Shown piece after piece: positions 26,035-47,645 of a stretch of DNA of 55,727 bases; within the stretch, counting starts at the first letter, position 1, and every line of letters begins with the position of its first letter. The position numbers and the translations under genes are program-made. The notes under the pieces were generated by a model. That model was not told the DNA's origin. It was given only the letters and a program-made list of their open reading frames with translations, and did not search any database. This stretch comes from a virus. The stretch lies in UHGV virus genome UHGV-0036148; one strand, 5' to 3'.

Positions 26035-29000
26035 TTATCCTGAGAATGAACCAGAACCGCGCGACACTATGACTGTCGGCGAATTTATATAAGCCCCCTT
26101 GTCATTTTGAGCAGATACCTTAATTTTAACTGTAACGCCCCTGCTGGTTACTGCTGCTGAATGCATAACAAGGCGCTCCGTGCCATCCAGTGCTGAATCT
26201 TTTGATGAACCGCCGATTGTTATTGTGCAACCACCAAAACCCTTAACGTTAGCCATAACGCAGATATGTCGGCTATACGCTGCGTCAGATGTGTCATTGT
26301 ATGTTATTACTTTTTCCAGCATCCCATCCCTTAACGTGCTAACGTCAGAACCTGTGTACATGTTTGCAACATCACCGATAAAGGTTTTCGCCTCAAGTGA
26401 ACCGGTAAACTTGCCGCTGTCTGCATGTATTTCACCCCTTACAACAACGTTGTTAAATTCTGATGCGCCGCTTTGTGTTATCCTCCAACCATTGGAACCG
26501 GGGACGAAGTTTGCTGATTTAATTTCATTGACAATTTTAGCCATAGTAATAGAGGCATCTGCAATTTTAGCTGTCCCTATTGATGCATCCTTAATAAATG
26601 CCTCTTTCACATACATTGCGCCGTTAGTGACATAGAAGGGCGATGTATATGCGCCGTTTGCCGCCGTCATTAACACGAAGCGGTCAACAAGGAAAATGCA
26701 CTGCGACTGAAAGTTAGTGCCATCACCAGTCAGGCCAAGCGACATACCTGTTGCGTATTTCATGCCGTTGTTGTCGGTGGCGAGCTTGATTGAATATGTC
26801 GCATCAACATTACCCCTAAAGTCGGTTAACGCTTTAGATGTCGTCTCTATTGCTGTCTTATTCCCGTTAACGGTAACTGTTAGCTGATCAATTTTCGTTG
26901 ACAACGCCTTATCTGCTGTAGCCATTGCCTGCGACCATTCTGTAATGCTTGAGTTTACCGATTCGAAAGACGCTGAGATCTGGCTAAATTTTTCTGCGCT
27001 TGATTCCTCATGCGTAGAAAGTGCCGTTGATACTTCAGACACTTTTGAATTGATCGTACTGGTAAGCGATGCGCTAAGGCCGCTTATTGCGTCTGCGCGT
27101 GCTTTTGTTTCGTCGGCGATGGCTTTGTCCATCCTGGTGACGTTGCTTGTCACTTTATTATCAAGCGTGCTGACACTTGCGCTAACTTCGCTGATAGCTT
27201 GTCCTCTGGCGCTTGTTTCGTCAGCAATTGCCTGATCAAGACGGTTTACGCTGGCTTCAGTCTTCTTATCAAGATTAGTGATCGATGCGCTTACCCCGCT
27301 AATGGCTTCCGCTGTTGCTTTTTTCTCTTCTGCCACAACGTTGTCAATGCGGTCGATTTTCGCGTTGGTTTCCCTGATTCCTTTCTTGTATTGGGCAGAA
27401 AGAGTAACACGCGTGTTGGTTTGAGCGATTGAGTTATTGATAAGTGCAATAGATGCGTTTTGCAGGCTTGCTTTTGCCTGATTTATTTCGTCGCTGTTTT
27501 TGCCAACATTATTTTCAACAGTGCCAAGATTTGCGCTGAGTCCTGATATTGCTTGTGCGCGGGCGCTTGATTCATCGGCAATTGCCTGATCAAGACGCTT
27601 AACGCTGGCGTTTGTGCTGTTCTCAAGCGTTGTTAAATCTGCTTTAACCTCTGTTATTGCGTCGCTTCTTGCCTGCGTTTCATCTGCTATTGCTTTATCA
27701 AGACGGGAAACGCTCGCGTCGGTTTTTCTTTCTAGACTGTCTATTGAGGCGTTCACGCCACTGATTGCTTGTGCGCGTGCGCTGGCCTCGTCAGAAATTG
27801 CCTGATCAAGTCTGCTTACTTCTGATTTGGTGTTGCTTTCAAGTGTGCTAATACTTGCATTCACGCTGCTGATAGCGTCAGTGCGTGCCTTCGTTTCGTC
27901 AGCAATCGCCTTATCAAGACGATTAACGTTACTTGTGACCTTACCGTCAAGTGTGGAAATTGACGCCTTCACACCGTTAATGGCTTCAGTTCTCGCGCTC
28001 GTCTCGTCTGCTATTGCCTTATCAAGACGGCTTATACTTGAGTCAGTTTTCTTGTCGAGAGCTGATACCGAGGCGTTTACTCCACTAATAGCCTCGCTGC
28101 GGGCGCTTGTTTCGTCTGCAATAGCTTGATCCAAACGTTTAACGCTGGCGTCAGTTTTCTTGTCAAGTGCTGAGATATTTGCGTTAACGTCGCTGACTGC
28201 CTGGGTGCGTGCGCTTGTTTCGTCGGCGATAGCTTGATCAAGGCGGTTAACGCTGGCGTCAGTTTTCTTGTCAAGATTGCTTATTGAGGCGTTTACACCG
28301 TTAATAGCTTCAGCGCGTGCGCTGGCCTCGTCAGCTACTGCGCGTTGCACGCTAGAAATCTGACCTTTGAGGTTTGAATCCATCGTATTCATTTCTGCCG
28401 TGATGGTTTTCAGTGATTCCGCTGTCGCTTTTTTCTCTTCAGCGATAACGTTGTCAATACGGTCAATTTCCGCTTTAGTCTCTGTCCTGCCTTTCTTGTA
28501 CTGAGCGGTAAGAGTTACGCGCGTGTTTGTCTGTGCAAGTGAGTTATTAATAAGAGCAAGTGACGCGTTTTGCATGCTTGCTTTCGCTTGCGCCAGTTCG
28601 CTGCCAACTTTTTCGCTGGACACTTCTAATGAATCAATTCTTGACTCATGCTGACCAATATCATCGGCGTTTTCCTTAACTTTTTTATAAAGATCTTCTG
28701 TTTCTTTTTTTAGCGTATCTGTATCAGCTTTTATTGATCCTGTTTCTGTAATCAGGTTGTCAGTATCATTTCTTAAATCTTCGGTTATGTTAGTCAGGTT
28801 GTCGGTTTCAGTTCTTAAATCGTCAGTTATGTTGGTCAGATTATCAGTTGCAGTTTTGAGGTTGTCGGTAGCTGCTTTTAGTTCATTTGTGGCATTTTCA
28901 ATAACATCCGTGCGATCACCAAGATCTTTGATGTCACCAATCATTTCCTTGAACTGTTCTGAGTTCATCACGTCTTTGGTGACGTAATCGCTGATTTCAT

Positions 29001-31413
29001 CAAAATTCTCTGTCGGCTTACCTGATGCCTCCACAAAGTCAGACACGCCAAAAGCATTGCGTGTGCGCACATAAACGTAATAGGTGTGCCCCGTGTTCAT
29101 GCCGCCAAAAGTCCACTGATGACCACGCCCGGTATATTGTGCCTTAGTGGTTACTGATGCCGGATCGGTGATCTGTTTTTCACCTGAGTAATAAAACTCA
29201 TAACTGGTGTCAGTGGTAAGCGTTGTTCTGCTGATCGGGTAAACTGTAGCCTGAAATACACCGGGAACCCAGTTAACTCCTACCGGGGCCGCTGGTGCAC
29301 CAATAACCAGATCCACAATACTTTCTGCACCCTTCATGCCCGTGTCATTTCTGCCACGGATGCCTAATGAGTAGGTTCCCGCATCAATGCCATAAAAATC
29401 ATAACTGTAATTAGTAGTTTCGTAGTATTTAACTACTGCCCCCGCTGAATTGTATACGCGGATTTCAAAGGTCAGGCGATGAGTTGTCGTCAGTGTTTCC
29501 CATGTTGCGCGGCATTGAACTGTTTCAGATCCAATGTTTAACACCTTCAGGTTTTCAATGTTCGGCACGCGGAAGTGATTAAGCGTATCGTTGTTGACCT
29601 CAAAGATTGCGCCATTATCAACTACAGCCTGTTTGTGCGGGTCATGCTGTGATGCCTCGATCGTGTACACGCTGTTATTTTCTGTTTCTGCCACACTGAT
29701 AATTCGACACAATACGGGTTTTGCCGCGTTAGTTGACACAGCAAATACAGTACCGTTACGAATCCACGCCGGGGCGGATGCAAGGGTAATTTTGTTTCCG
29801 CTAACTCCGGTGATCTGGTGTTTTTTAAATTTGCCGTCACTATCAAGCAGGCTAATGGTGTCGCCAGGGGTGATATATTCAGAATCAACCTTATCGACAG
29901 TGATAACCCTGCCATTGTTTGCCACGATACGACCACCTAGACGGGCGCCAGCGCGGTTATTGTCGAGTATCTCGATAATATCACCAGGGGTGAAGTGAAT
30001 TGCGTCACGGGCCATTTTAAACGTGAATTTAGACGGCTCGCGTTTTGCTGTTTCTATCAGCCATTTGCCAGCGCGGTACGCTTGCCCGCGTGACGTGCAC
30101 CCGAACGCCTCCAACGTGGTTTCGTTATAACCATCGCGGGCGATTAGTTCATCATCTGCCACGTATTCTTTTGATTGCTCCCAGCCGTTTTCCGGGTCAG
30201 TCCATGATACGATCACGGCGTTGTAACACTCTGCAAGCGGAAGACTTGAGCGAGTAAACGCGCCATCAACGACGTTTGCGTTTGTGATGGTGGCAATTGG
30301 ATCCTGTGGTGCATCAATCATCACGGTAAGGCGTTGCCCGTCCCATAACGCGATACCACGGAACATACCTGCAATGTTATCCAGTAGGTCGCGGGCGCTC
30401 ATTTGCTCCGTAATGTAAGCGTTAAGCGTCATGCGAGGTTCAAGGCCACCATAGCCATCATCAACCAACTGATCGCAGTATTGGGAGAGCACGTACAAAG
30501 CGCCATCATCAACATCAATGTAACCAGCATGTTTAGCAAGCCCGAAGCGCTCGTTTTTAACCAGATACCGGAAAATCCACGCAGGGTTATTGGTGTACGC
30601 TTTTTTGAATCCGCCAAGCCATAAACCAGAATACGCGCGCGTTTCTGTGTTGTAGTTATCAGGAACATCAACAATCAGGCCGCGAAGGTGATAGGTACGT
30701 GTAGGCGTATCAGTATATTGATCGTGGTCAATTACCGCGCCAGCTACAGCGGTATGAGGATAAGACAGGTTATCGTCAATTATTTCGCTGTAACTACTCC
30801 ACCGCGTATCATTCCTCAATAGATCGCCGTTGCTGTCTGGTGTTACGCGACGAACGCGAATATCAAATGGTTTTTCATCCGGCGCTTTAATGATGTGAGC
30901 TTCCAGATATTCACCACTTTGCTTGCCGGGGCCAATGTGTATATCCTTAATCAGCGACCACGTAGAAGATAATGACGGTTTAACATCAACCATCAACATG
31001 ACAGATGTATTGTACTGGTTGCCCTTTTCATCTGACTGGACTAGAGCATCGACACCAAGATTTAACCTGACACGGGTAACGTTTGGATCTGAAACAGTCC
31101 TGATTATTGGTGTGTCGTGAGTTACCTTTGCGTTGACAATAACGGTTGATTCGATGGCATTAAAGCCATTAATCGGCGATTGGTCAGCCGTGCCGTTGCG
31201 CCAGGCTACACTAATCCCGGGGATTGATGTATTCCCGTTTGCGTCAGTAACAGGTGTGTCATTAAGCATCACGTCATTCAGTGGCGCTTTCTGGTTTACC
31301 GGACCGTATATCGGCCCTTCACTGAGAATGTCTAAAACACGATAAAACTGTTTGTGATACAGGTTATCGTTCAATAATGTTGGTGTTTTGGCTTTGCCGC
31401 CGCCGCTACTCAT
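26035..31413 (-). CDS. J: host specificity / central tail fibre protein J with expanded repeat region
   Basis: N-terminus MSSGGGKAKTPTLLNDNLYHKQFYRVLDILSEGPIYGPV parallels lambda J; 1792 aa with about ten 35-aa tandem repeats. Confidence 0.9.
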   Translation of the reverse strand: MSSGGGKAKTPTLLNDNLYHKQFYRVLDILSEGPIYGPVNQKAPLNDVMLNDTPVTDANGNTSIPGISVAWRNGTADQSPINGFNAIESTVIVNAKVTHDTPIIRTVSDPNVTRVRLNLGVDALVQSDEKGNQYNTSVMLMVDVKPSLSSTWSLIKDIHIGPGKQSGEYLEAHIIKAPDEKPFDIRVRRVTPDSNGDLLRNDTRWSSYSEIIDDNLSYPHTAVAGAVIDHDQYTDTPTRTYHLRGLIVDVPDNYNTETRAYSGLWLGGFKKAYTNNPAWIFRYLVKNERFGLAKHAGYIDVDDGALYVLSQYCDQLVDDGYGGLEPRMTLNAYITEQMSARDLLDNIAGMFRGIALWDGQRLTVMIDAPQDPIATITNANVVDGAFTRSSLPLAECYNAVIVSWTDPENGWEQSKEYVADDELIARDGYNETTLEAFGCTSRGQAYRAGKWLIETAKREPSKFTFKMARDAIHFTPGDIIEILDNNRAGARLGGRIVANNGRVITVDKVDSEYITPGDTISLLDSDGKFKKHQITGVSGNKITLASAPAWIRNGTVFAVSTNAAKPVLCRIISVAETENNSVYTIEASQHDPHKQAVVDNGAIFEVNNDTLNHFRVPNIENLKVLNIGSETVQCRATWETLTTTHRLTFEIRVYNSAGAVVKYYETTNYSYDFYGIDAGTYSLGIRGRNDTGMKGAESIVDLVIGAPAAPVGVNWVPGVFQATVYPISRTTLTTDTSYEFYYSGEKQITDPASVTTKAQYTGRGHQWTFGGMNTGHTYYVYVRTRNAFGVSDFVEASGKPTENFDEISDYVTKDVMNSEQFKEMIGDIKDLGDRTDVIENATNELKAATDNLKTATDNLTNITDDLRTETDNLTNITEDLRNDTDNLITETGSIKADTDTLKKETEDLYKKVKENADDIGQHESRIDSLEVSSEKVGSELAQAKASMQNASLALINNSLAQTNTRVTLTAQYKKGRTETKAEIDRIDNVIAEEKKATAESLKTITAEMNTMDSNLKGQISSVQRAVADEASARAEAINGVNASISNLDKKTDASVNRLDQAIADETSARTQAVSDVNANISALDKKTDASVKRLDQAIADETSARSEAISGVNASVSALDKKTDSSISRLDKAIADETSARTEAINGVKASISTLDGKVTSNVNRLDKAIADETKARTDAISSVNASISTLESNTKSEVSRLDQAISDEASARAQAISGVNASIDSLERKTDASVSRLDKAIADETQARSDAITEVKADLTTLENSTNASVKRLDQAIADESSARAQAISGLSANLGTVENNVGKNSDEINQAKASLQNASIALINNSIAQTNTRVTLSAQYKKGIRETNAKIDRIDNVVAEEKKATAEAISGVSASITNLDKKTEASVNRLDQAIADETSARGQAISEVSASVSTLDNKVTSNVTRMDKAIADETKARADAISGLSASLTSTINSKVSEVSTALSTHEESSAEKFSQISASFESVNSSITEWSQAMATADKALSTKIDQLTVTVNGNKTAIETTSKALTDFRGNVDATYSIKLATDNNGMKYATGMSLGLTGDGTNFQSQCIFLVDRFVLMTAANGAYTSPFYVTNGAMYVKEAFIKDASIGTAKIADASITMAKIVNEIKSANFVPGSNGWRITQSGASEFNNVVVRGEIHADSGKFTGSLEAKTFIGDVANMYTGSDVSTLRDGMLEKVITYNDTSDAAYSRHICVMANVKGFGGCTITIGGSSKDSALDGTERLVMHSAAVTSRGVTVKIKVSAQNDKGAYINSPTVIVSRGSGSFSG
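27150..28420 (-). repeat. tandem ~105-bp coding repeats within J
   Basis: recurring gcttgtttcgtc(a/g)gcaat(t/a)gc(c/t)tgatcaag...aacgctggcg units; protein repeats LDxAIADETSAR... Confidence 0.7.
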
Positions 31414-32644: not shown

Positions 32645-33345
32645 CCCACCTTGCTGGATCCAGGGAAACAGGAAATTGGTAACGGATTAGGGCGCGGAAA
32701 ACGCAAACGGCAACCGCTTAGGCGGTGGCTGCATTTATCCAGCTTCGGATCACTGGTTAGCTCGTCTTTGTCAGTAGCTACGGGGCCGCCACTGTATCTG
32801 CAACCGTCGCCGCGATATTGCCACTGGCAAACGTCAGCGAGAATTGTGCGCCCGGGGATAACCGCCTTGTCAGCATCAATTGGCGTTGACAGTTCATATT
32901 GCACCTGGTCGGCTGTTTCTTCGCTCATCGCCTCAACGACGTAAAAAGATACAGCCTCAATAGATGGATCTGCATCTGGATTGCCGTTGGGGAAGTTAAC
33001 AGCGTCCAGGTATTTTACTTCCACCTGGCGGCGCGTAACCTTCATTCCTCGCAGGTCGTTAAAATCGTTGTTCATCCCGGTGATTAGCCCGCCAATGTTG
33101 GCTACTACCATTTGCGGGCGCGAGTAAACGCCTTCGTTTTTCATTTCGAAGCCAGTAGCCTCGATTGGGTAGCTGTTGTAAGTCACTCCCTTCCAGATAA
33201 CCGGGCCGTAATAGCCATTCGCGCCGGAATGGAAGCGGATAACCTCGCCACCCAGGGGCGTGAGGTCTAATTCAAACAAATCAATTACCGCGCCGACTCC
33301 GGCATCGACGGAATCAATAATCATTTCTGTAGGTATGCTGCGCAT
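32641..33345 (-). CDS. L: minor tail protein L
   Basis: YLDAVNFPNGNPDADP, LSTPIDADKAVIPGR, QWQYRGDGCRYSG, KCSHRLSGC parallel lambda L. Confidence 0.85.
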   Translation of the reverse strand: MRSIPTEMIIDSVDAGVGAVIDLFELDLTPLGGEVIRFHSGANGYYGPVIWKGVTYNSYPIEATGFEMKNEGVYSRPQMVVANIGGLITGMNNDFNDLRGMKVTRRQVEVKYLDAVNFPNGNPDADPSIEAVSFYVVEAMSEETADQVQYELSTPIDADKAVIPGRTILADVCQWQYRGDGCRYSGGPVATDKDELTSDPKLDKCSHRLSGCRLRFPRPNPLPISCFPGSSKVG

Positions 33346-33361
33346 TTTTTCACCTTGTCAT

Positions 33362-33383
33362 TTTGTGATCGCCGTCACGCTAA
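33362..33383. promoter_or_regulatory. degenerate CRP-like site in divergent region between L and plus-strand moron cassette
   Basis: tttTGTGAtcgccgTCACGc. Confidence 0.25.
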
Positions 33384-33473
33384 ATCATACCAAAACGGTT
33401 GATAGCGATTTTTACAATATGTATATTGTACTCAAAAGGAAGCATGGTTAACAAAATGGCGCGGAGGTGTGAG

Positions 33474-33629
33474 ATGACTGATAAGGTGTGGAGGTTGACG
33501 GTATTCCTGTCAGGCGGCAGGGAAATGACTGTGGCTCTGTATAAAGACGAAGGCGAGGCACTGACTGACGCGCTTTTACTTACTGAAGATGACCGCGTTT
33601 TGGGATACAGGATCGAACCTGCCAAATGA
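33474..33629 (+). CDS. hypothetical small protein (51 aa), moron cassette gene 1
   Basis: GGAGGTG SD; plus strand inside minus-strand tail module. Confidence 0.35.
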   Translation: MTDKVWRLTVFLSGGREMTVALYKDEGEALTDALLLTEDDRVLGYRIEPAK

Positions 33630-33642
33630 AAGGTTAACAAAA

Positions 33643-33993
33643 ATGCAAAAATACAGATTAGACGTGTGGACTGATAAATGTGAGTGGGAAAGCATAGGAC
33701 TATTTGACACATTCGAATCAGCGCGTAATGAAGGTTGTGAATTGCTCCGCTGTTGGTCTGGTGCTCGTGATTATTATGTTATTCCGGTGCAAGTGCCGGA
33801 TAAGGTGGAAGAGATGAACCCGAAAGATATTAACTTTAACGTCAATGTTGAATTTGCCGACTCTATGGATCAGGCTTGCCCTGGTGAAATACACGCAAAA
33901 GGTTTCCCGGCAGACAATCCGCAAGCAAAACGCGAATACGAAAAAGCGGCAAAAGATTTCTGTATCGACAATTTGTCTGCGTTCGATAAATAA
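33643..33993 (+). CDS. hypothetical protein (116 aa), moron cassette gene 2
   Basis: ORF following gene 1 on plus strand. Confidence 0.4.
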   Translation: MQKYRLDVWTDKCEWESIGLFDTFESARNEGCELLRCWSGARDYYVIPVQVPDKVEEMNPKDINFNVNVEFADSMDQACPGEIHAKGFPADNPQAKREYEKAAKDFCIDNLSAFDK

Positions 33994-34002
33994 GGCGGCA
34001 AC

Positions 34003-34251
34003 ATGGGGCGGCGCAATCACGGCGATTATGTGTACACGTTGAAACAGGCCGCCCGCCTCGTTGGTTATCATGAACACGAATTTATTGATTTGCTGATTGA
34101 GCGCGGGATACTGTACCAGGTCTGTTTAACGCTGTACCCGAAAGCGAAATACCTACAGGAAAAGTTATTCATCATCATGACGGATGAAAACCAGGTTAAC
34201 CATTCATTCGTCACTGATAAGGGCGTTAATTATCTGCGTGATAACTTATAG
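34003..34251 (+). CDS. hypothetical protein (82 aa), moron cassette gene 3
   Basis: AAGGCGG SD; plus strand. Confidence 0.4.
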   Translation: MGRRNHGDYVYTLKQAARLVGYHEHEFIDLLIERGILYQVCLTLYPKAKYLQEKLFIIMTDENQVNHSFVTDKGVNYLRDNL

Positions 34252-34261
34252 GTGACAGATT

Positions 34262-34378
34262 ATGAAAATAGAAGTTTTGGCGCTAATAATAATGGGATTG
34301 ATAGTATTTGGCGTTCATGCTGTAGATCTGGACTGGAAAACGATAGCGGAAAATATAGCATTAATGGAAATGGAATAA
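34262..34378 (+). CDS. mini membrane/secreted peptide (38 aa)
   Basis: MKIEVLALIIMGLIVFGVHA... hydrophobic N-terminus; GGTGA SD. Confidence 0.3.
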   Translation: MKIEVLALIIMGLIVFGVHAVDLDWKTIAENIALMEME

Positions 34379-34382
34379 TAAT

Positions 34383-34410
34383 AACCCCGCTTCTCGCGGG
34401 GTCGTGTTTA
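34383..34410. terminator. hairpin terminator closing the plus-strand moron cassette
   Basis: CCCCGC-ttctc-GCGGGG hairpin; T-rich on minus side, TCGTGTTTAT on plus side. Confidence 0.45.
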
Positions 34411-34605
34411 TACGCCATCAACCAAAAATAAAACTTCCTTCCCTTCCCGGGATCTACACCCCACGTACCCATCGCCAACGTCGTGAAGATACCATATATC
34501 GCCGTTGTCAGCTTTTACAGTAAGGTCGTTGATCTCATAGTCGTCAAACAATGTAAAAGCGTCAGTTTTGTCAACTACACAAGTCCCGTACATATCAACC
34601 CCCAT
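34408..34605 (-). CDS. hypothetical protein (65 aa)
   Basis: ORF immediately downstream of M. Confidence 0.35.
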   Translation of the reverse strand: MGVDMYGTCVVDKTDAFTLFDDYEINDLTVKADNGDIWYLHDVGDGYVGCRSREGKEVLFLVDGV

Positions 34606-34958
34606 TAGCCGACAACTTGCTCAAATGTTGCGTTTAGCGTGTATACAGGCCCATCTTTGGTCATGCTCCAGCTACGACAAACAAAAAGCCTCTGCACGTT
34701 ATCCATAGATGGCGACCAGTAAAAAGCCTCGATAGCGCCTCGCGCCCTCAAGAATGCTTCTGCCTGGATCGCCACGTTCCCTCCATCACCACATCCCGCG
34801 CTACTGCCTTTAAAAACCAGGGTGTAACTATCAAGTAATGTGTTAATCCCTTTCGCCTGGCGTTGTTCATACCCATCACCAAGTTTAATGACAGATACGT
34901 TTGGCTCCCTGGTCACGCTGTAGCTTCTTTGCGGCGTCCATCTGAAAACTTCTGGCAT
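34605..34958 (-). CDS. M: minor tail protein M
   Basis: FRW...LGDGYEQRQAKGIN...EQVVG parallels lambda M; GGGGGAAT SD. Confidence 0.8.
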   Translation of the reverse strand: MPEVFRWTPQRSYSVTREPNVSVIKLGDGYEQRQAKGINTLLDSYTLVFKGSSAGCGDGGNVAIQAEAFLRARGAIEAFYWSPSMDNVQRLFVCRSWSMTKDGPVYTLNATFEQVVG

Positions 34959-34984
34959 GATTCCCCCTATAAGTTACATATTGC

Positions 34985-35020
34985 ATACATCTTTACGCGC
35001 TTCTACGCGAAAAATGAGAA
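34985..35020 (-). promoter_or_regulatory. conserved intergenic element (copy 1) upstream of M
   Basis: atacatCTTTACGCGCTTCTACGCGAAAAATGAGAAA; near-identical copy at 47609..47645. Confidence 0.4.
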
Positions 35021-35127
35021 ATTCATCACAAGAATTATAACCAGTTTACAAAATGGCTTCACACAGTGCGTGACAATATGTATATAGTAAGCAAGAAGAA
35101 AAAGCAGTACCGACAAAGGAGGCCAAC

Positions 35128-35283
35128 ATGAAGCGTTATGTAGTGGTAATGCTGAACAACGCATTCGAACAGGTGGAAGTGGCGATAGTCAAAGGCTTTG
35201 ATGACGCATTCAAATACGGTCAATTCATGATGAATGCGAAGGAAAACGAGTACCGTGATTTCTTCCTGAAAGTGGTCAACTAA
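35128..35283 (+). CDS. hypothetical small protein (51 aa)
   Basis: AGGAGG SD; plus strand between M and tape measure. Confidence 0.35.
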   Translation: MKRYVVVMLNNAFEQVEVAIVKGFDDAFKYGQFMMNAKENEYRDFFLKVVN

Positions 35284-35301
35284 TGGATTGCGGGGTGGGT
35301 T

Positions 35302-35556
35302 ATGAAATTGGTAGCGATTGGTAAAAATCTGAAAGCACAGAAAAACGCACAGGACCGGATCATCAAAAAGGGCAAGGCTTTATTAAATGCTTTCCTGAGA
35401 AAAGAGGCCACCCCCAAAAAATTACGCGATGGTTACGGTTATAAATTTGATATTAACCCCGATTGGCGGTTATTCAGCGAAGATTTAAAGGCGTGGTTAA
35501 TTATCGACCATCTGGAATATAACAGACACTGTGGGGTTAAAGGGGCGCATAAGTAA
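35302..35556 (+). CDS. hypothetical protein (84 aa)
   Basis: GGGGTGGG SD; plus strand. Confidence 0.4.
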   Translation: MKLVAIGKNLKAQKNAQDRIIKKGKALLNAFLRKEATPKKLRDGYGYKFDINPDWRLFSEDLKAWLIIDHLEYNRHCGVKGAHK

Positions 35557-35691
35557 GGCGGGCATGAAGGGCGATAAATTCACCCGGCGGGGGAACTGGA
35601 ATGTTTGACAGGTAATTTTGGATAGGGTGTATCGCGCGGAATGGTTGTTTATAAATACGAAAATAGCCCCGGCATTGTGCCGGGGTTTGGT

Positions 35692-38600
35692 TTATTTGCG
35701 GCGAGGTTGCAACATTCCTCCAGGGCGTTGCGACTCCCTTGCCATCATTTTCATTGCTACGCGTTCCATTGTCTGCTCAAGCCTGCGGCTATCCTCGTCA
35801 CTAAATCCGTTTGTGGTCTGGACGGTGATGTTTACAGGCATATTGATACCGCCACCGCTGAAAAGATCGCGGCCAGGAATAACCCTGCCATTTTCACCAG
35901 GAATCATATACTGACGCCCGTTGCTCGTCTGGAATAGCTCCGGTATCCCGTGTTCCCCTACGCGATACAGGCTACCACCATTAACCGCACCGCCGTTATA
36001 GCGAGCGCCAGCCAGTCCAAGCGTTTTGGCGGCAGCTACGCCAGTAGTAAGCCCAGTAAGTCCAGTGGCCCCAGCGCCGCCCATCGTGGCAACGTTTGCC
36101 AGGTATGCAGGAGTAGCCCACGCTGATGATAACGCTGCCGCCTCTGCCAGTGCTTTGGTTGTTGCCATAGTTCTTGCTGTATCACCAATCAATTGCTGCT
36201 TGACCCACTCAGTACCCATTTGAACAATCGTACCAATCACAGAGGAAAGGATTGTATTGCCAATGTTAGCCAGCGCCTGTTGCCAGCTTTGAGTACCGTT
36301 AATCAGGCCGACAAGCGCGTTAGTTGCAGATCCGCCCATTGCATCAACAGCATCACCTAACAGTTGGTTGGTCAATGACTGCGCCTTATACCTCTCCCAC
36401 TGAAGTGATAGCATTTCCCTCTCGTGCGCTTTTTCTTGCTCCCTCATATATTGCTCTGTAGCGCCTAAATCTGTGAGCATTTGTTTGCGAACCGCCCATT
36501 CGTTCATCGCCTGCTGAATTGGGTCTAGCTGCCCGCGTAGTTGCAGCTCATTGTTTACCAGATTATCCCAACTAGATTGGCGTTTGCGTTGCTCTTCCGC
36601 CGCAACCAGCGCTTTCCATGCCGTAGTATATTGTTCGGTATTTATTTTTCCGCTTTTAAGTGCGGCGTTTAGCGCATCCTGATCCTCTTTTAATTTCCGT
36701 TGTGCTGCGGCTTCTACGTTGTATTTGTCTGCAACATTCTGGCCCCGCTTCTCAATCTCTTTGCGCAGGCGTTCAGCCTCTTTTAGACGTTTTTTCTCCT
36801 CGCTTTCGCCAGTTTTTTTCCCATGACTGGCCTTTCTTTCAGCTTCGGCGCGTTTCTGCTCGGTGTCGTATGCTTTGGTCATTGTAGCCATGTATTTTTC
36901 ATACGCTTCCCCGGTCAGGTTTGCTTTCTCAGCCTCACGCTTAAACCCATCAATCGCCTTTTCCCTGCTGGCTGTTTTGGAGTCGAGTTTTGCCAGTTCC
37001 AGGCGGCGGTTTGCCAGATCCATTAGTTCTTGTTGATCTGCGTTAAGTGCTGCTGAAGCGTGTTGCGTTGCTGCTGCTGCGCGTTCTGCTTCTGTGGTGA
37101 TTCTTCCGTATGCATCCGCCACCAACCCTAATGAAGTGGCAAGGGTCTTCATTAGCGGATCTGTATCCTGCATAAGCAAAATATATTTGCGCTGCATTTG
37201 ATTAAGGCGGTCGAGAATATCCTCACGCTGCGCCTCTTCCCTGGTCAGGCGGGCTGTGATTTCCTGATTAGCTTTCGATAGGTTGGCGTAAGCGCGTGAC
37301 CCCTCCTCTGCTTTCTCCAGTGCCTGTTTATTCAGCTCCAGCGCCTGCGTGTCCTGGTCAATCTGTTTGTTGAGACTGGCAACGTCTTCCTCTAACTGAC
37401 CCATTGATATTTGTAGTTTATCTGCGCCAGCCAGTTTAGCCGCCTTGCTCATTCGCTCCAGTGATTCGGTACTAACATCCACTGAATCAGCAAGGTTGCG
37501 GTTTGCCTCTGCCGTTTGATCTACGTGATCTACATATGCTGTCAACCCGTAAACAGCAAGCATTAACGCGCCAGGGATACCACCAATCGCGCCCAGAGTA
37601 GCGCTAAATGCTGTTTTTAGTAGTCCCGCATTAGTCGCCGCCGCAGTGTGGGCCGCAGCAAGGCGCTGCTCTGCCGCAGTAAGGGCGTTTGATGCCGCCG
37701 TGTTCTGTGCTTTGGCTACAGCCAATTCTTTCAGCGTCTGAACTTCGAATTTTGTTCCGGCGTTTGCCGCAGCATAAGCCTGCGCCTCTCTCAGCCTTGC
37801 CGCCGCCGCCGCTGCTGATTGCCGTGCTGATACCACCTGAGCGTTAGCTAGCGCCAATTCACTCTGAGCGGCCTGCCGTGCCGCTGCCGTTTGTGCCCTG
37901 GTTGCCTGAGCGTTAGTTAATGCCTCTGCTGTTGCAGCTACGAATTTATTTACCACTCTGCCACCCATCACAGTGGCAAGGCCAATAAATGCAGTAGCTA
38001 TTTCGTTAAGGTTTTCTGACAGGGTTACAACTGCCGAATTAAAAGCACCAATCCCGCCCATAATTGACGAATTGCTGCCGAAAAATTTAGCTGCGTTGTT
38101 GCCTGCAACAGTGAAAGCCTCCTGCATAGTTGGGGTGAGTTTAGAAAACTCAGCATCAACCTCCGCTTTCATTTCCTTAAGGGCTTTAATGATAGCTTCA
38201 CGGGTGATCTTCCCTTCTGCTGCCATCTTGCGCATTTCTGCCGACGATACGCCCAATGATTTAGCCAAACCCTCTGACAGCCTGGTAGCGTTTTCTGTAA
38301 CGGAGTTAAATTCATCGCCATTCAAAACACCTTTGGCGAGGGATTGACCCAACTGACGGATCCCGCCTTCTGCTTCAGCGGCAGAAGCGCCAGAAATGCG
38401 GAATGTTTTGTTAATGGTTTCAACCATATCACCAAGTGCTTGCGTCGATAAACCAGCGTCGCGCGTCGAGCGCTCTAATTTACCGTAAAGATCTGCCGTA
38501 GCATCAAGATCGCTTCGTGAATTTTGCGCGATCTGAAATACACGCTGATTAACGTCTGCCAGTGATTCACCAGCACGAACGCTATTGATTAGCCTGTTAT

Positions 38601-38841
38601 TCACCTCCTGCCAGGCGTTTGCATACTCAATGATTTTTTTTGCTGCCATTGCAGCACCCAGGGCACTGGCAATCGAGGATAGCTTTGACAGTGACTTACT
38701 TGCCTGAGTGGCGGCACTATCCACGCGCTCCAAATCCTTTTCCATTTTGCCAGTTGCGCGATCTACCTCGCGCTGAACAGTCAGAAGCTGACCCGTTTTT
38801 GCATCAACCTCGTAATAAATTGTGCCTAAATTTGTTGACAT
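35692..38841 (-). CDS. H: tail tape measure protein
   Basis: 1049 aa, Ala/Gln-rich coiled-coil, position between chaperone and M; GAGGT SD. Confidence 0.85.
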   Translation of the reverse strand: MSTNLGTIYYEVDAKTGQLLTVQREVDRATGKMEKDLERVDSAATQASKSLSKLSSIASALGAAMAAKKIIEYANAWQEVNNRLINSVRAGESLADVNQRVFQIAQNSRSDLDATADLYGKLERSTRDAGLSTQALGDMVETINKTFRISGASAAEAEGGIRQLGQSLAKGVLNGDEFNSVTENATRLSEGLAKSLGVSSAEMRKMAAEGKITREAIIKALKEMKAEVDAEFSKLTPTMQEAFTVAGNNAAKFFGSNSSIMGGIGAFNSAVVTLSENLNEIATAFIGLATVMGGRVVNKFVAATAEALTNAQATRAQTAAARQAAQSELALANAQVVSARQSAAAAAARLREAQAYAAANAGTKFEVQTLKELAVAKAQNTAASNALTAAEQRLAAAHTAAATNAGLLKTAFSATLGAIGGIPGALMLAVYGLTAYVDHVDQTAEANRNLADSVDVSTESLERMSKAAKLAGADKLQISMGQLEEDVASLNKQIDQDTQALELNKQALEKAEEGSRAYANLSKANQEITARLTREEAQREDILDRLNQMQRKYILLMQDTDPLMKTLATSLGLVADAYGRITTEAERAAAATQHASAALNADQQELMDLANRRLELAKLDSKTASREKAIDGFKREAEKANLTGEAYEKYMATMTKAYDTEQKRAEAERKASHGKKTGESEEKKRLKEAERLRKEIEKRGQNVADKYNVEAAAQRKLKEDQDALNAALKSGKINTEQYTTAWKALVAAEEQRKRQSSWDNLVNNELQLRGQLDPIQQAMNEWAVRKQMLTDLGATEQYMREQEKAHEREMLSLQWERYKAQSLTNQLLGDAVDAMGGSATNALVGLINGTQSWQQALANIGNTILSSVIGTIVQMGTEWVKQQLIGDTARTMATTKALAEAAALSSAWATPAYLANVATMGGAGATGLTGLTTGVAAAKTLGLAGARYNGGAVNGGSLYRVGEHGIPELFQTSNGRQYMIPGENGRVIPGRDLFSGGGINMPVNITVQTTNGFSDEDSRRLEQTMERVAMKMMARESQRPGGMLQPRRK

Positions 38842-39100
38842 GATTTAACCTCATACAAAATGTGATCTATGCCTCTATTTTATACAAAATGGATTTACCT
38901 CAGTGAACACATTTTGTATAAAGAAGCCAAAGGAAAGGGATAGAGCGAAGGGACTTAAAAGGCCGGATTGACCGGAGGAAGCAAAAGAGGATAAGAAAAT
39001 GAAAAACGTAAACTACCACCCCAACGAACATGAGCGCTATGCTGACTTTATCGAGCAAATGTTAAAAGCGCTGAAAAACAAAAACTAAGCGGGGTGAAAT

Positions 39101-39460
39101 ATGAAAAGTCTGGCAAAAATCTTAATCGTGGCGGTACTTGCAGGAGTTGCGCTTAATGCTAATGCTGAGCACTCTCCGTCCGCAAAATACATACTTCGTG
39201 AATGTGCGCATAATGCTCAGTTGTACGATATAAAGCATGGTGACGGTAATGGTGATCTGGAAATGCCATTTAACGTTGGCTGTATTCATTACGCAATGAA
39301 GCCAGTATTAGAAAAAACCGCTGAATGGAAAGATCTTAATAGCAAGTACAATGAATTAAAAGAGGCGGCAAAAAACAATAAAGCGTCACTAAATGCGTTT
39401 AAGGATGGCGAGTCTTATGGTGTAAACGTGGCCCACAGAGTTGATGCGTATTTCAACTAA
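39101..39460 (+). CDS. secreted protein with signal peptide (moron)
   Basis: MKSLAKILIVAVLAGVALNANA signal peptide; opposite strand within tail module. Confidence 0.5.
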   Translation: MKSLAKILIVAVLAGVALNANAEHSPSAKYILRECAHNAQLYDIKHGDGNGDLEMPFNVGCIHYAMKPVLEKTAEWKDLNSKYNELKEAAKNNKASLNAFKDGESYGVNVAHRVDAYFN

Positions 39461-39472
39461 CACAGAATTTTA

Positions 39473-39499
39473 GAGGCCCGGCTAATCCCGGGCTTTTTC
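39473..39499 (+). terminator. rho-independent terminator after secreted-protein gene
   Basis: GCCCGG-ctaatc-CCGGGC followed by TTTTTC. Confidence 0.5.
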
Positions 39500-40162
39500 T
39501 TGCTCGCTATTTTCCATTCTTTTTAGTATCTCCATAGCCTCCCTCATTCCATCGTCATAAGCCTTTTTATCCAGTAATACATCTGGTCGTTTTTGTTTGT
39601 TTCTTGCTTCTGGCGGCGTTTTAGCACGCACAGCGGCCCTATATCCGGTCATTGTCATATTCCACGCTTCTGATTCTGATAACCCCAGGTGAGCAACGGC
39701 AGAATAAACAAACTCCAGTATGTCGAACGTTGGTTTGTATTCACCTTCCTGTCTATCGCTTGCGACCTCTTCAGGGCCATCACCAATTAAGCCGTGGTAC
39801 ATGCAGTGTTGCGCCAGCGTAATAACATCATCAACCGGCATTATTCCCGGTTTTAATCTCAATTTACCCGAAGGAGTGAACCTGCATTCGCCCAATAACG
39901 GGCCTGTTTCGTCGTCTGAGCAACATTTCAGTATGTGGATGGATGTTTGTACTATCTCACCATAACACCGCGCCATAATGCGATTGCGGAGGTCTGGATC
40001 TGTGGGTAATCGTGATGGGTATTTGCTGCCGTGGATAAGTGCGAAATATTCGACAAGCTCACTATCGTTGCCGATTTTAGCCATCGCAGCAAAGCAAGGA
40101 TTAAATTCATAGCGCTTACCGTTCACCACAGCCGCAAATTGTCCTGTACGAACATGGATCAT
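39482..40162 (-). CDS. putative tail assembly chaperone (by position)
   Basis: occupies the G/GT position between major tail gene and tape measure; ATG 40162 with AGGGTGA SD. Confidence 0.3.
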   Translation of the reverse strand: MIHVRTGQFAAVVNGKRYEFNPCFAAMAKIGNDSELVEYFALIHGSKYPSRLPTDPDLRNRIMARCYGEIVQTSIHILKCCSDDETGPLLGECRFTPSGKLRLKPGIMPVDDVITLAQHCMYHGLIGDGPEEVASDRQEGEYKPTFDILEFVYSAVAHLGLSESEAWNMTMTGYRAAVRAKTPPEARNKQKRPDVLLDKKAYDDGMREAMEILKRMENSEQEKARD

Positions 40163-40181
40163 AGTATTCACCCTAAAAGGA

Positions 40182-40199
40182 AGGGGCTAAATAGCCCCT
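40182..40199. terminator. hairpin between major tail gene and chaperone (possible attenuator)
   Basis: AGGGGCT-aaat-AGCCCCT stem-loop. Confidence 0.3.
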
Positions 40200-40206
40200 T
40201 TATTGT

Positions 40207-40683
40207 TTATGCGGCAACTGGATCGGTTACAGTTACCTGGCCCGCGCTTTCGCACTCAATGGACCAGGTTGTCACATCATCGTGCGGCGCTTCTTCTTCG
40301 AAAGATGTGCAAAGGAATGGACCCTCAGTCACATCGGTGGGGGTGACGATTTTTAGCCACACGTATGGCTGATTTCCGGTAGCAGTGCCCGGTGACATTA
40401 CATGACGCTTTAGTTCTTTCTGGTTGTGTAGAGCATCACTACGTGATACGCCGTCGCCGGAGAAAGAAACAGATTTGTAAGTGACCAGGGATTCTTTGGT
40501 ATAGTCGGCGGATTTATCAGCGGTGGCGTCTGCGGTTTCCCATTCTACGGAAAGCGTTTTGCCGCGCATCATGCCTAACGCTTTATATGCTTCTTTACCA
40601 GGTTTCGCATTAGGGCAAGCGATAGCAAAGAATACAGCAACGTCACGGCCTGTAAATGAGCCATTTTCGCAAGTCTGAGACAT
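40207..40683 (-). CDS. major tail protein (V-like, by position)
   Basis: 158-aa ORF in the V position upstream of chaperone/tape measure. Confidence 0.5.
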   Translation of the reverse strand: MSQTCENGSFTGRDVAVFFAIACPNAKPGKEAYKALGMMRGKTLSVEWETADATADKSADYTKESLVTYKSVSFSGDGVSRSDALHNQKELKRHVMSPGTATGNQPYVWLKIVTPTDVTEGPFLCTSFEEEAPHDDVTTWSIECESAGQVTVTDPVAA

Positions 40684-40696
40684 GGTTTGTTACCTC

Positions 40697-41083
40697 TTAT
40701 CTAGATATGATAGTTTGAAAAGCTACGGTAAAAATAAAGCGCCCTTCTTTTGTCTGCATTGCAGGAATAGCGCCTACTGGCTTCATGTGTGTAATTTTAT
40801 CAGTTTTATACTCTGTTATCATACTTTGCCGTATAGCGTCGGCGAGATCTTCCACTTCACTGATATTTGCGTCATTACGCGCTGAAATAACCAGGATGCG
40901 GAAATAATCACGGGTTATTGCTTCTTCACCAGCCGCCCCGCCGTTTTGCTGTATGACAATGTATCTGCTGTTATTCGAATTGGATCGCTCATTCCAGAAA
41001 CGGGCCTGCAAAATATAACCTTCGTCGTACCCGTGGGATTTAATCCAATCCCTTATTTCGTCGTATACTTCGCTGCGTTTCAT
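40697..41083 (-). CDS. tail terminator-like protein (U position)
   Basis: 128 aa, position immediately upstream of major tail gene. Confidence 0.4.
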   Translation of the reverse strand: MKRSEVYDEIRDWIKSHGYDEGYILQARFWNERSNSNNSRYIVIQQNGGAAGEEAITRDYFRILVISARNDANISEVEDLADAIRQSMITEYKTDKITHMKPVGAIPAMQTKEGRFIFTVAFQTIISR

Positions 41084-41520: not shown

Positions 41521-41531
41521 AGAAAACCCCT

Positions 41532-41924: not shown

Positions 41925-42096
41925 AGCTCCATTTGACGATTTTCGGATGGGTTTTCGCCACGCGCGGGCAAAGAATTACCCATTCGCCAGCGTCATTAAG
42001 ATAGGCCGCCACCTGTCGCCCGGTATCAGTTTTCACCCACACGCGGGTAAACAGTTTCGGCAATAGCGGATCCGGTAATGTCAGGTCGTTCCACAT
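41911..42096 (-). CDS. hypothetical small protein (61 aa)
   Basis: ORF in neck module. Confidence 0.3.
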   Translation of the reverse strand: MWNDLTLPDPLLPKLFTRVWVKTDTGRQVAAYLNDAGEWVILCPRVAKTHPKIVKWSYGYE

Positions 42097-42098
42097 TG

Positions 42099-42485: not shown

Positions 42486-42502
42486 TTTGTCTTCTCCACA
42501 TA

Positions 42503-42531: not shown

Positions 42532-42550
42532 AGTTACAGGAAATAAGAAA

Positions 42551-45346: not shown

Positions 45347-46287
45347 TCTTCGCCATATTTAGCGTGCGCAACCTTATAGTTTTCTTGCGCCCGTTCTAAT
45401 ATTCGTTTGTTTAATATATTACCGTCTTCGTCAACTAATACGGTAATAGTGCTGCATTTGCAGTTAATTGAATTAGGGGATCTACTCCACCATTCGCGCT
45501 GCTCTTCTATGGTGTACGTTTTCCCGTGCCGCTGTGCGTGTGACAGCCTGGTAGTCGGCGACAATGCCGAAATGTGCATCTGCATAGTGCGCAAGTTAAG
45601 CTCATCCGATGCGGCCTCTGCCTCATCCATACGCGCTGTGCGCAACGCTGTGCATATTTCAGTGCGGGCAATACGTTTGCACCTGTATAGTGGTAATTGC
45701 GTTTCCTGCTGCAATGTGCGCGCTATTTCGAGTGGGTTTAAGCCACGAGCCATGCCTTCAGTTAATCGGCGGGCCATATCCTTCTTGATCTGTGCTGTAA
45801 GCCCGCGCATCTCTTCAAATACACGGGTACGAACAAGGGCAAGGCGCGTGCGATAGGTCTGACTGGTTAATACCGCCGACACTTCAGGGTAAGCCCTGGA
45901 ATATGTGACCGACTGGTTAGCGAGGTTGGCATATTCCTGTGCAGTACCGCGCTGATATGCCACTTTCACGTACTCCTGCCAAAACCAGAAGTTTTCCGGG
46001 TCGGTAAGGTCGAATATCTCATCAATCATGTCGCTGGCGTCTTCAAGCAAATCATGCAATTCGTCGATGTAGATCTGAAAAGTGTATTTCTTGTTAACAG
46101 CCAGGGTGTATTGCATCCGGTCCAGTATGGCGATATACGGTTCCGCAACTTTCTTAAGGCAGGCTTTAAAACGCTTGATAGCACCGGACCTCAACTTCCC
46201 TGTCATGGTCGGGTCTTCGGTGTTAGATGGCATTATCGCGGCTGGAGGTATTCGCCTGATTATCTTCTTCACCTTCATCATCGTCAC
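45337..46287 (-). CDS. MuF-like minor head morphogenesis protein
   Basis: central and C-terminal regions resemble the Mu F / SPP1 gp7 family (recalled). Confidence 0.55.
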   Translation of the reverse strand: MTMMKVKKIIRRIPPAAIMPSNTEDPTMTGKLRSGAIKRFKACLKKVAEPYIAILDRMQYTLAVNKKYTFQIYIDELHDLLEDASDMIDEIFDLTDPENFWFWQEYVKVAYQRGTAQEYANLANQSVTYSRAYPEVSAVLTSQTYRTRLALVRTRVFEEMRGLTAQIKKDMARRLTEGMARGLNPLEIARTLQQETQLPLYRCKRIARTEICTALRTARMDEAEAASDELNLRTMQMHISALSPTTRLSHAQRHGKTYTIEEQREWWSRSPNSINCKCSTITVLVDEDGNILNKRILERAQENYKVAHAKYGEDWE

Positions 46288-47593
46288 CCTCTTCCGTTTC
46301 TACTACACTAGCGGGGCCATCGTATCCGGCAGCCTCGCGGATTTCGTCACCGCTAAATATCTCTTCACCAGTAGCCAGACAAGCCTGATTGATTTGTGCC
46401 ATTTTGTGTGCCGCTTCCAGTAGTTCGGCTTTGGTCATGGCGTTCAGGTCGTCCCATATTACTGATACATCAATTGGCATACTGATAAGGCGGAGATCTG
46501 CCATCTTGCGGAACAGATCTTCAAGTTCACCGCCAATTTCCTCCCTGCGGGTCATACAGCGGCTGTTGAAATAGCGGAGATCTTCGGTTGATGCGCGTTC
46601 TCCCTGCTGGTTCCCTACCAGGATGCGGGTCGGAATATCAATACCAGCGGCGGCGGTTTGCAGGTTGACGTCATAGGTTGCTGACGGGTCAGATACGGCA
46701 GTCACCAGCGGGCTGACTGTTGCCCCCTGTAATGCCATCATCACATCGTTACCCTTATTCATTTCAGCCGCAGCCTCATTGAATCTTTCGCGTAGCTCTG
46801 TAACGTCGCAATCGTATGTTGCAGCCAGGGAACGGAAGTCAATTTCCTTATCGAATGAGATAGCAAGCTGGCGGGCGGCGTTTTTCAGGAATGATTCACC
46901 GCTACCACCTTCCACCTTCTCCAGTGACACAAAGGCGTTATAGGAAGGTTCAAGGAAAGCGATAGCATCATCAGAATAGTCGCCAAAGATGAATATGCGG
47001 TCAGGGTGGATCTTTCTGGCAATGGTTTTACTGTTTATGCGCTCTTTGTATTCCCACCATGTCGGCAGGCCATAATTTTCACTGTTCGGGTCTTCTTCGA
47101 CCTCCTTCGGTGTAAGAGCGCCAGCCCATACCGGGGTAAATTTGGCAATACCTACGCCTTTTGTCACTGGCTGATCCCACGGCTGGTTATCTCTGACATG
47201 AATCAACAGGCCAGCATAACGACCAATGAGGCGGCGGCGGTCACATTCGGCAATGATGCGCCAAAATCTGTTATCAAACTGTTTCTTGATTTCTCTTTCC
47301 CAGGATGTTTCTGTTTCCGCTTTCTCGTCTTCTGTTCCTTCAATCATCGTTGGCCTGGTGCGCCAGCAAGTTGTGATGATTTTCTCAATAGCACCGTGAG
47401 CAATACCACCGCGACGATACAGTTTGTATAGATCGTCATACGTGATCTCTTCTTTGAATCCGTATTCACTCCACGCAGCATCGCGTTTGGCATCTATCCC
47501 CATAGTGAATGGGTTGGCGGCTGCATAGCGGGCATAGGCCGCCTGACGTTGTGACAAGGCAGCATTAACCGCCAATTCTAAATTGGATGGCAT
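46223..47593 (-). CDS. portal protein
   Basis: large ORF directly downstream of TerL with acidic C-terminus; ATG 47593 with AGGAG SD. Confidence 0.65.
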   Translation of the reverse strand: MPSNLELAVNAALSQRQAAYARYAAANPFTMGIDAKRDAAWSEYGFKEEITYDDLYKLYRRGGIAHGAIEKIITTCWRTRPTMIEGTEDEKAETETSWEREIKKQFDNRFWRIIAECDRRRLIGRYAGLLIHVRDNQPWDQPVTKGVGIAKFTPVWAGALTPKEVEEDPNSENYGLPTWWEYKERINSKTIARKIHPDRIFIFGDYSDDAIAFLEPSYNAFVSLEKVEGGSGESFLKNAARQLAISFDKEIDFRSLAATYDCDVTELRERFNEAAAEMNKGNDVMMALQGATVSPLVTAVSDPSATYDVNLQTAAAGIDIPTRILVGNQQGERASTEDLRYFNSRCMTRREEIGGELEDLFRKMADLRLISMPIDVSVIWDDLNAMTKAELLEAAHKMAQINQACLATGEEIFSGDEIREAAGYDGPASVVETEEGDDDEGEEDNQANTSSRDNAI

Positions 47594-47608: not shown

Positions 47609-47645
47609 ATACATGTTTACGCGTTGCTACGCGAAAAATAGAAAA
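47609..47645 (-). promoter_or_regulatory. conserved intergenic element (copy 2) upstream of portal
   Basis: atacatGTTTACGCGTTGCTACGCGAAAAATAGAAAA. Confidence 0.4.

Follow-up and report, generated by a model that had tools for sequence, protein, structure and literature searches.

A conserved intergenic element at the heads of morphogenesis gene blocks in mEp021-like coliphages and of a TerS-containing operon in CPZ-55-type islands of Escherichia coli

Background

Why does a temperate phage keep nearly the same short sequence in front of two separate structural genes, and at what level is that sequence read? The question arises from the virus genome UHGV-0036148, the full 55,727-nucleotide stretch of which was analysed and is called the window here. 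A preliminary description, made from the letters of the window, had noted a near-identical pair of ~35-bp sequences upstream of the portal gene and the gene of minor tail protein M, and had proposed that conservation of non-coding DNA inside a late operon reflects a shared regulatory or RNA-processing signal.

Results and discussion

The phage and the layout of its late genes

The region of the window around the element matches seven GenBank phages (mEp021, mEp010, mEp013, mEp044, mEp515, mEp554 and MagusPhagus) at 84-97% identity, and by these matches the window is an mEp021-like (mEpimmI) temperate coliphage of E. coli. The mEpimmI group consists of Nus-dependent, non-lambdoid temperate coliphages, which encode an N-like protein, Gp17, and have published nut sites nutL, nutR1 and nutR2 (PMC11893012). 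That paper discusses the repressor, Gp17 and the nut sites of these phages, mentions neither their late promoters nor the motif described here, and gives no virion DNA termini.

The late genes lie on the minus strand and, in transcription order, comprise holin/lysis genes, terS, terL, the portal gene, head/tail genes, the tape measure gene, M, L, K, I and J. The gene names given in the preliminary description were borne out: the first gene after the second copy of the element is a portal gene (46223..47593, minus strand; phrog_146, E=1.3e-114), located downstream of terL (47672-49156, minus strand) in transcription order, and the first gene after the first copy encodes a 117-aa minor tail protein M-like product (34605..34958, minus strand; phrog_14, E=3.6e-29). 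The placement of both copies within a late operon was only half right. The 1,049-aa tape measure gene (35692-38841, minus strand) is followed by a bidirectional terminator (35665..35687), identified by a terminator scan and by annotation in relatives, which parts the late genes from an opposite-strand cassette of two small genes (51 and 84 aa; 35128..35556, plus strand) preceding the M site. The M copy sits in a divergent intergenic region, after both the terminator and the cassette. At the analogous junction before L there is an ordinary promoter, TTGTTA-18-TACAAT.

Several other features of these regions were noted. The window has more matches than expected to the motif TATACAAAATGG (CCATTTTGTAWA on the other strand), 30 at up to 2 mismatches against 7.1; its sites include 4040-4051, 4107-4118, 12198-12209, 16827-16838, 19768-19779, 33448-33459, 35045-35056, 38881-38920 and 54261-54297. 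It adjoins the -35 of an early pR-like promoter (TTGACT-17-TATATT, ~12195-12160, minus strand) and is found again, frequently in inverted pairs, wherever late genes meet an opposite-strand cassette; it is probably an operator or promoter-associated site. The gene of a 1,792-aa tail protein (26035-31413) contains tandem and dispersed repeats at 27097-28590, namely a 108-nt period, 243-nt units of 60-74% identity, and a 174-nt pair 1,110 nt apart. A 194-aa protein encoded between the lysis genes and terS (50424-51008, minus strand) has an HExxH motif (LVHECAHT) and a lysine-rich tail, with no Pfam match and a match to phrog_1365 (unknown function).

The phage encodes a Q-lambda-family antiterminator (ORF 1859-2581; PF03589). 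A candidate pR'-like late promoter is located on the minus strand at 52540-52440, just before the holin start at 52438, where TTGTAG-17-TAAAAT is followed by a -10-like AACAAT (AACGAT in lambda) and by a strong terminator at ~52482-52458. This cassette, which does not adjoin the Q gene and lies ~5 kb downstream of it on the late strand, is plausibly a pR'-tR' arrangement.

Two copies of the element

The two copies, each of 37 nt on the minus strand, are located at 34985..35021 (M site; sense TTTCTCATTTTTCGCGTAGAAGCGCGTAAAGATGTAT) and 47609..47645 (portal site; sense TTTTCTATTTTTCGCGTAGCAACGCGTAAACATGTAT). Both sequences are present as first quoted, with identity at 31 of 37 bases; a repeat search of the window aligned them at 88% identity over 34 nt. 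The coordinates given earlier for the portal copy were correct, and the end given for the M copy, 35020, was one base short. A search for further copies returned these two sites only: the pattern TTTACGCGNNNCTACGCGAAAAAT (21 specified bases, up to 3 mismatches) matches nowhere else in the window, where the number expected by chance is 0.00 (100 shuffles), CGCGTA-N4-CGCGTA is likewise confined to them, and in a looser scan of the window every other site differed from the element by at least 11 of 37 bases. As had been described, each copy contains a direct repeat of CGCGTA and ends shortly before the start codon of a minus-strand gene. On the gene strand the two CGCGTA units are 10 bp apart. 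The M copy stops 26 nt short of the ATG of M at 34958, and the portal copy 15 nt short of the ATG at 47593, with AGGAG at 47603-47607 in between.

The longest portal open reading frame begins at an ATG within the element (47614), and the GenBank record of mEp021 is annotated likewise. No ribosome-binding site precedes this ATG, and other contexts have ATATAT, AAGTAT or GTGTAT variants in its place, so that the element is not kept as coding sequence; a start codon in ATGTAT as the function of the element was rejected, as it is not conserved. The suspicion that the second copy merely encodes the N-terminus of the portal protein therefore fails. The ATG at 47593, after AGGAG, is the more likely start, and the deposited mEp021 portal coding sequence is probably seven codons too long.

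Conservation in related phages

In ~45 related viral contigs the element is retained at both of these locations. An exact-core scan of IMG/VR returned 90 stretches, of which three are chance matches and the rest lie in contigs of ~50-57 kb, most having one portal-type and one M-type copy. Search bias was removed by flank-anchored sampling, in which loci were recognized by the portal ribosome-binding site and start, and the element was not required: it is present at 50 of 50 such loci, one with a T-to-C change beside the first CGCG. Nor is it missing from any of the mEp-like M sites recovered from viral and metagenome contigs, a few of which have variants (A-to-G in the first CGCGTA, a spacer shorter by 1 nt, or C-to-T opening either CGCG); a metagenome scan gave 22 real sites, among which a single variant was new. 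In a set of 43 distinct M-site sequences, variation is heavy between TATAAT and the T-run and moderate beyond TAAA; neighbouring intergenic positions vary in at least 10 of the 43, and core columns in 0 to 4. The element is thus intergenic and under purifying selection at both sites, as the claim of non-coding conservation implied, and the possibility that it is absent from relatives has been disposed of.

What is conserved is not quite what had been emphasized. The CGCGTA direct repeat is present, but the conserved unit is ATTTTTCGCGTAG (35003..35015 in the M copy and 47627..47639 in the portal copy, minus strand), the sole invariant block across eight representative contexts, and invariant or nearly so across 32 distinct sequences. 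The invariant columns of the 32-sequence alignment are the T-run, GCGT of the first CGCG, G of TAG, GC of the second CGCG, and TAAA. The second CGCG and TAAA (34992..34999 and 47616..47623, minus strand) run into the -10-like TAAAGAT in the M copy and TAAACAT in the portal copy. The second half, NNN-CGCGTAAANRT, is kept in phages and decays in the genomic islands described below. The variable triplet is not specific to a site, since AAG occurs at the portal site in two contigs and CAA at the M site in one.

In one contig, L080 (IMGVR_UViG_2695420423_000006), an extra gene lies between the element and M, and the element still heads the enlarged block. Homologues of M in unrelated phages are without the element, as is Klebsiella phage RAH1, which has the closest terL-portal junction outside the group (15-nt gap). 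A relaxed-pattern scan of species-representative genomes gave only chance matches in unrelated taxa. One sequence picked up by the pattern, in an Omnitrophota MAG (L203, JAGLHE010000217.1), consists of closely spaced TTT(C/T)GCGTAGTTTCGCGTAAA-like repeat units and is almost certainly unrelated to the element.

Genomic islands with the same element

When 5,426 complete E. coli genomes were queried with 39 nt, the element was found in 52, most of which have it in two places and at least 14 of those listed in only one; among the genomes listed, none was recognized as a laboratory strain. Most of the single copies examined lie outside mEp-like prophages, in small islands between eutB and eutA that are bounded by intZ, which makes them members of the CPZ-55 family. 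The island layout is intZ, accessory genes, a gene of 61-66 aa encoding an HTH_17/AlpA-like protein, at most one open reading frame, the element, and small genes including a TerS-like gene; that is, copies of the portal type head a TerS-containing operon. Island L200 has a full copy, ATTTTTCGCGTAGCAACGCGTAAACATGAAT. In islands L198 and L215 the second CGCG is changed to CGCA. In island L214 TTCTATTTTTCGCGTAGCAAC is intact (21 of 21 bases of the 5' half), followed by complete divergence with the 3' arm gone, and the next gene is a diverged homologue of its counterpart in other islands. The element is always co-oriented with the next gene, and in three unrelated contexts, those of the phages included, the start codon follows the second CGCG at a distance of 26-42 nt.

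Because the islands have TerS-, tape-measure- and Xis-like genes related to those of this phage, they look like satellites of mEp021-like phages; the literature search returned no paper describing CPZ-55-type islands as such. Between the TerS-like proteins and the N-terminal domain of TerS of the window, identity is 34-40%. The KSC9 island (L201, NZ_CP018323 143500-163500) encodes a shortened tape measure protein of 726 aa, in which the N-terminal 42 and C-terminal 115 residues match the two ends of the 1,049-aa phage protein at 55-60% identity, and a 78-aa protein 79% identical to the 72-aa Xis-like protein of the phage. The L214 island also occurs as a separate 8,009-bp record in two strains (NZ_CP062904.1 and NZ_CP062859.1), with the element at 3461 and 1114, respectively, as for a circular or permuted episome, which suggests that the satellite is active.

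A tR'-like terminator hairpin, CCCGGCCCCGCGCCGGGTTTTT (window 52456-52482), is 96-100% identical to terminators at gene ends in islands L199, L202 and L215, and is a second short regulatory module common to phage and islands; the 23-nt match comprises the terminator hairpin only, with no adjoining pR'. As for a shared trans-acting factor, the island AlpA-like HTH protein has no homologue in the phage, and the Xis-like protein was found in the KSC9 island only, other island loci stopping short of that end. No copy of the element was found near int in the islands, and attachment of the island integrase was rejected as its function, the element being internal to integrated islands and so not their attP.

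Helper and satellite share 28 identical bases, the otherwise variable triplet included, which could also be expected of a packaging site bound by the small terminase subunit and copied by the satellite from its helper, much as P4 carries the P2 cos region. The relationship of the island TerS-like proteins to the DNA-binding domain of phage TerS agrees with such a site, as do the A/T tracts flanking the GC cores of the element. It is nonetheless improbable: each phage genome has two copies in the same orientation, with 12.6 kb between them and always intergenic near start codons, the portal copy is downstream of terL rather than in or before terS, one island retains half of the site, and the same specificity is not expected of TerS domains so low in identity.

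Still less probable is that the element is a functionless recombination scar or a product of gene conversion at module boundaries. The two phage copies do coincide with mosaic boundaries (terminase/portal, and opposite-strand cassette/M), some genomes (L003, L023 and L058) show exchange of the variable triplet between the sites, and in L199 and L214 the homology stops inside the element. A scar would hardly account for a core kept in ~50 genomes while its flanks diverge, for the strict orientation, or for a perfect core in islands where the flanking gene has diverged to ~35-40% identity.

Repeats, hairpin and the possibility of an mRNA-level signal

As CGCG is self-complementary, the element can be described in three ways: as a direct repeat (CGCGTA-N4-CGCGTA) in 10-bp phase, as an inverted repeat (TTTWCGCG-N6-CGCGWAAA), and as a hairpin. 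The third description raises the possibility that a U-run and short stem-loop (CGCGU-loop-RCGCG, flanked by UUU and AAA) act in the untranslated region of the mRNA, either as an RNase E-type processing site with a protective 5' hairpin or as the operator of an RNA-binding protein, with the effect that stability or translation of structural genes is uncoupled from that of upstream genes (TerL or AlpA-like).

At each site the minimum-free-energy structure predicted for the sense RNA contains the hairpin, and 97.7% of cells in the alignment are pairable. Two stem substitutions in phages (C1 to T and C11 to T) retain G.U pairs in the sense RNA only, loop position 10 is a purine able to pair with U5 in 28 of 32 sequences, and a 1-nt deletion falls in the loop. 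The portal and island elements lie within a co-directional gene array, after a stop codon and a C/A-rich linker. At all M sites there is a perfect -10 hexamer, TATAAT (35034..35039, minus strand), 24 nt upstream of the first CGCG; its best -35 is only GTGAAG (3/6), so that the consensus promoter scan described below does not list it. It is possibly the sigma-70 -10 of the M block, in which case the element would lie ~17 nt into the leader.

Against these observations, the fold energies are no better than those of shuffled sequences (z = -0.89 and -0.53), and there is no compensatory change among the eight pairs in 32 distinct sequences, while the T-run and TAG, which are unpaired, do not vary. 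The terminal pair of the hairpin is broken in the L198 and L215 islands, and L214 keeps a perfect 5' half with no 3' arm. The distance to the ribosome-binding site, 13-29 nt, makes direct occlusion unlikely, and no Rfam family matches: nothing was found at the gathering threshold and nothing relevant at E <=10. The lack of covariation and the island that keeps only the 5' half argue against a purely structural RNA signal. On balance the constraint appears to be on sequence rather than structure, and mainly on the 5' half. Action at the mRNA level is accordingly viewed with some doubt, and yet it is nearly as likely as the promoter or operator considered below.

Known classes of signal

The element was compared with signals that might be expected before late genes. 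A sigma-70 promoter scan of 33000-50500 (-35 and -10 each at least 4/6, 16-18 bp apart) listed none at either copy. By eye, -10-like YATTTT and TAAANRT can be discerned within the element, and every -35 candidate has at most 3/6. An intrinsic terminator was rejected, as the T-run precedes the hairpin on the sense strand, the A-run follows it on the other, and the scan for terminators did not return it. An antisense promoter on the plus strand (TTTACG-17-TAnnnT) scores 9/12 in island L200, and its -10 is unconserved in the phage copies. A CRP-like TGTGA-N6-TCTCA upstream of the M copy is absent from the portal site and is centred at a non-activating distance. Both a CII-like geometry, with direct repeats flanking a -35, and a class II activator centred at -41.5 fail at the portal site, where the start codon falls at the -10 position. 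A leader peptide or read-through frame ending at TAG is broken by variants in the length of the T-run, and a CpxR box (GTAAA-N5-GTAAA) matches partially, leaving the invariant CGC unexplained. The RfaH ops element has the consensus GGCGGTAGnnTG in the non-template strand; only GTAG is in common with it, positions 1-4 and 11-12 being different.

Signals for antitermination were examined with particular regard to the biology of the group. The boxA sequence GCTCTTTAAAAATC occurs exactly in the window at 4009, 11899 and 13134 only. Taken as CTCWTTAAAAATC, it is exact at 4009-4021 (minus), 11899-11911 (minus) and 13134-13146 (plus), each copy followed by a small hairpin with a GNRA-like loop, and these three sites presumably correspond to the published nutR2, nutR1 and nutL on which Gp17 acts; a further copy, at 12112-12124 (minus), has one mismatch. 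A nut site at the element was rejected, as the boxA-like neighbour of the portal copy has three mismatches and is at chance level (77 such sequences found, 80 expected), and as the loops of the element, UAGAAG and UAGCAA, are not GNRA-like, the nut loops of the window being U-GAAA-U, U-GCGA-A and U-GGAAG-U. A Q-lambda loading site was rejected also: with a Q-binding element of 13 or ~14 bp, at positions in lambda that are our own assignment, and a -35-like hexamer 1 bp before the -10-like pause element, all within an initially transcribed region, no register fits either copy. The layout of the loading site was taken from the lambda pR' sequence and the literature (PMC9388147).

The same comparisons bear on a further reading, in which the element is a site where elongating RNA polymerase pauses or is loaded with a factor, rather than a site where it starts. 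The non-template YATTTT would capture sigma-70, and a helper factor (Q, the N-like protein or another) would modify the polymerase there, ahead of the head and tail-tip genes. Both critical bases of YATTTT are kept: 31 of 32 sequences have A as the second base, and all have T as the last. The consensus of the elemental pause is G-10 Y-1 G+1, of which CGCG-N6-CGCG, with its CGCG spacing of exactly 10, contains two matches. Q-lambda contacts its site in two patches, positions 1-4 and 11-13 (PMC9388147), a geometry that the two CGCG patches match, and the phage group is Nus-dependent with an N-like Gp17 (PMC11893012). The spacer of the candidate pR' contains GCGTAAAC, an 8-mer common to the portal copy, although such sharing is expected ~1.7 times by chance. 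With the Q-lambda layout fitting neither copy, boxA at chance level, loops (AGAA/AGCA) unlike the GNRA type of the three nut sites, and no strong terminators in the island operon, this reading is considered unlikely.

A shared promoter or operator

Strict orientation, position before the first start codon and reuse by the satellite point to control of expression by a sequence-specific factor, and the element is probably a control signal read by both the phage and the islands. Of the regulatory or RNA-processing signal first proposed, the regulatory part is well supported, because the element is non-coding, always co-oriented, under purifying selection and reused at the head of a satellite operon; it may act at the level of DNA or of RNA. 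The best explanation, to be held tentatively, is that it is a factor-dependent internal promoter or operator, read on DNA by helper and satellite alike.

According to this explanation, the element would be a strand-oriented cis-regulatory cassette marking the starts of morphogenesis gene blocks: the portal-to-tape-measure block and the M block in mEp021-like phages, and the TerS-containing operon in CPZ-55-type islands. The invariant block would supply a weak sigma-70 core without a -35, consisting of the -10-like YATTTT, a TCGCGT discriminator and a start at the A of TAG, which would give ordinary leaders of 35-51 nt; alternatively, TAAANRT would be the -10, with a purine 7 nt downstream as the start. 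The core would overlap a CGCG-N6-CGCG recognition site, made up of two 4-bp patches one helical turn apart and bound by a putative regulator specific to the phage family. A single regulator may thereby switch on the head and tail-tip genes of the helper and the packaging genes of the satellite together. We infer action on DNA, initiation of transcription and a dedicated factor from these features.

Action on DNA is favoured because the invariant half survives by itself in L214, because that half has the shape of a -10-like hexamer whose A and final T hardly ever vary, a GC-rich discriminator and a pyrimidine-purine start (T then A, 7 nt after the hexamer), and because transcription of the M block has to start anew past a terminator and an opposing cassette, the L block having an ordinary promoter at the analogous junction. 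Several observations weigh on the other side. Neither copy has a -35 or a promoter by the consensus scan, and a start from TAAANRT would begin the portal mRNA at its own Shine-Dalgarno sequence, with a leader of 13 nt. The Q-lambda-family antiterminator and the pR'-tR'-like cassette are present in this phage, and the arrangement of Q and pR'-tR' in lambda makes internal late promoters unnecessary. The search for an activator covered 10 proteins, nine of them without assigned function, and gave no DNA-binding Pfam match and no candidate. The perfect TATAAT of the M site, 24 nt upstream, fits a location of the element in a 5' leader.

Comparison with known systems

The arrangement most closely recalls the Ogr/delta-dependent late promoters of P2 and P4, in which one cis element precedes the morphogenesis operons of the helper and the late operon of the satellite; here too, the same cis element was found at several late operons of the apparent helper and at an operon of the apparent satellite. 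In P2 and P4 that element is a dyad, TGT-N12-ACA, with its centre near -55 of promoters with a recognizable -10 and -35, and the activator is a zinc-finger protein of the Ogr family. No such dyad was found upstream of either copy. The element of the mEp021-like phages is unrelated in sequence, lies no more than ~45 nt from the start codon and has no -35, and the helper has a lambda-type Q. Cis elements shared between helper and satellite are thus already known from P2 and P4, and it is in sequence, architecture and the Q-type helper that the present case differs.

The lambdoid qut site at pR' is similar in having two 4-bp patches one helical turn apart by -10-like hexamers, and a Q-lambda-family protein is encoded by this phage; the spacing rules are not obeyed, however, and there are two copies of the element, both distant from the Q gene and the candidate pR', with no terminator directly after them. 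With nut sites it shares a small GC stem, a purine-rich loop, an untranslated location in a long operon and a Nus-dependent phage, whereas it lacks an above-chance boxA, its loop opens with A in place of the G of a GNRA-like fold, and its stem sequence is invariant while the three real nut sites use three different stems. Intercistronic processing sites of the papB-papA type, which have a stabilizing 5' hairpin, and the PeSL cassettes of T4-like phages are also repeated intergenic stem-loop cassettes at block boundaries with evidence of exchange between copies, but the element is conserved in sequence rather than structure, and PeSLs contain a recognizable early promoter.

Conclusions

Among gut coliphages, the mEpimmI phages form a common group that was defined only recently, and the 13-nt core gives a handle on their late regulation. 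The occurrence of the same core before a packaging operon in the islands suggests a pairing of helper and satellite that was not encountered in the literature searched, and bears on the long-open question of how satellites in Gram-negative bacteria time their packaging genes to the late phase of the helper. If the factor is a helper protein, the element would be the sensor of the satellite; if it is encoded by the host, the element would be a new type of promoter or leader signal. Should a pause in elongation be the true function, satellites would have copied a checkpoint, such that their packaging operon is expressed only with the helper factor, and this would be a case of trans-exploitation of helper elongation control by a satellite.
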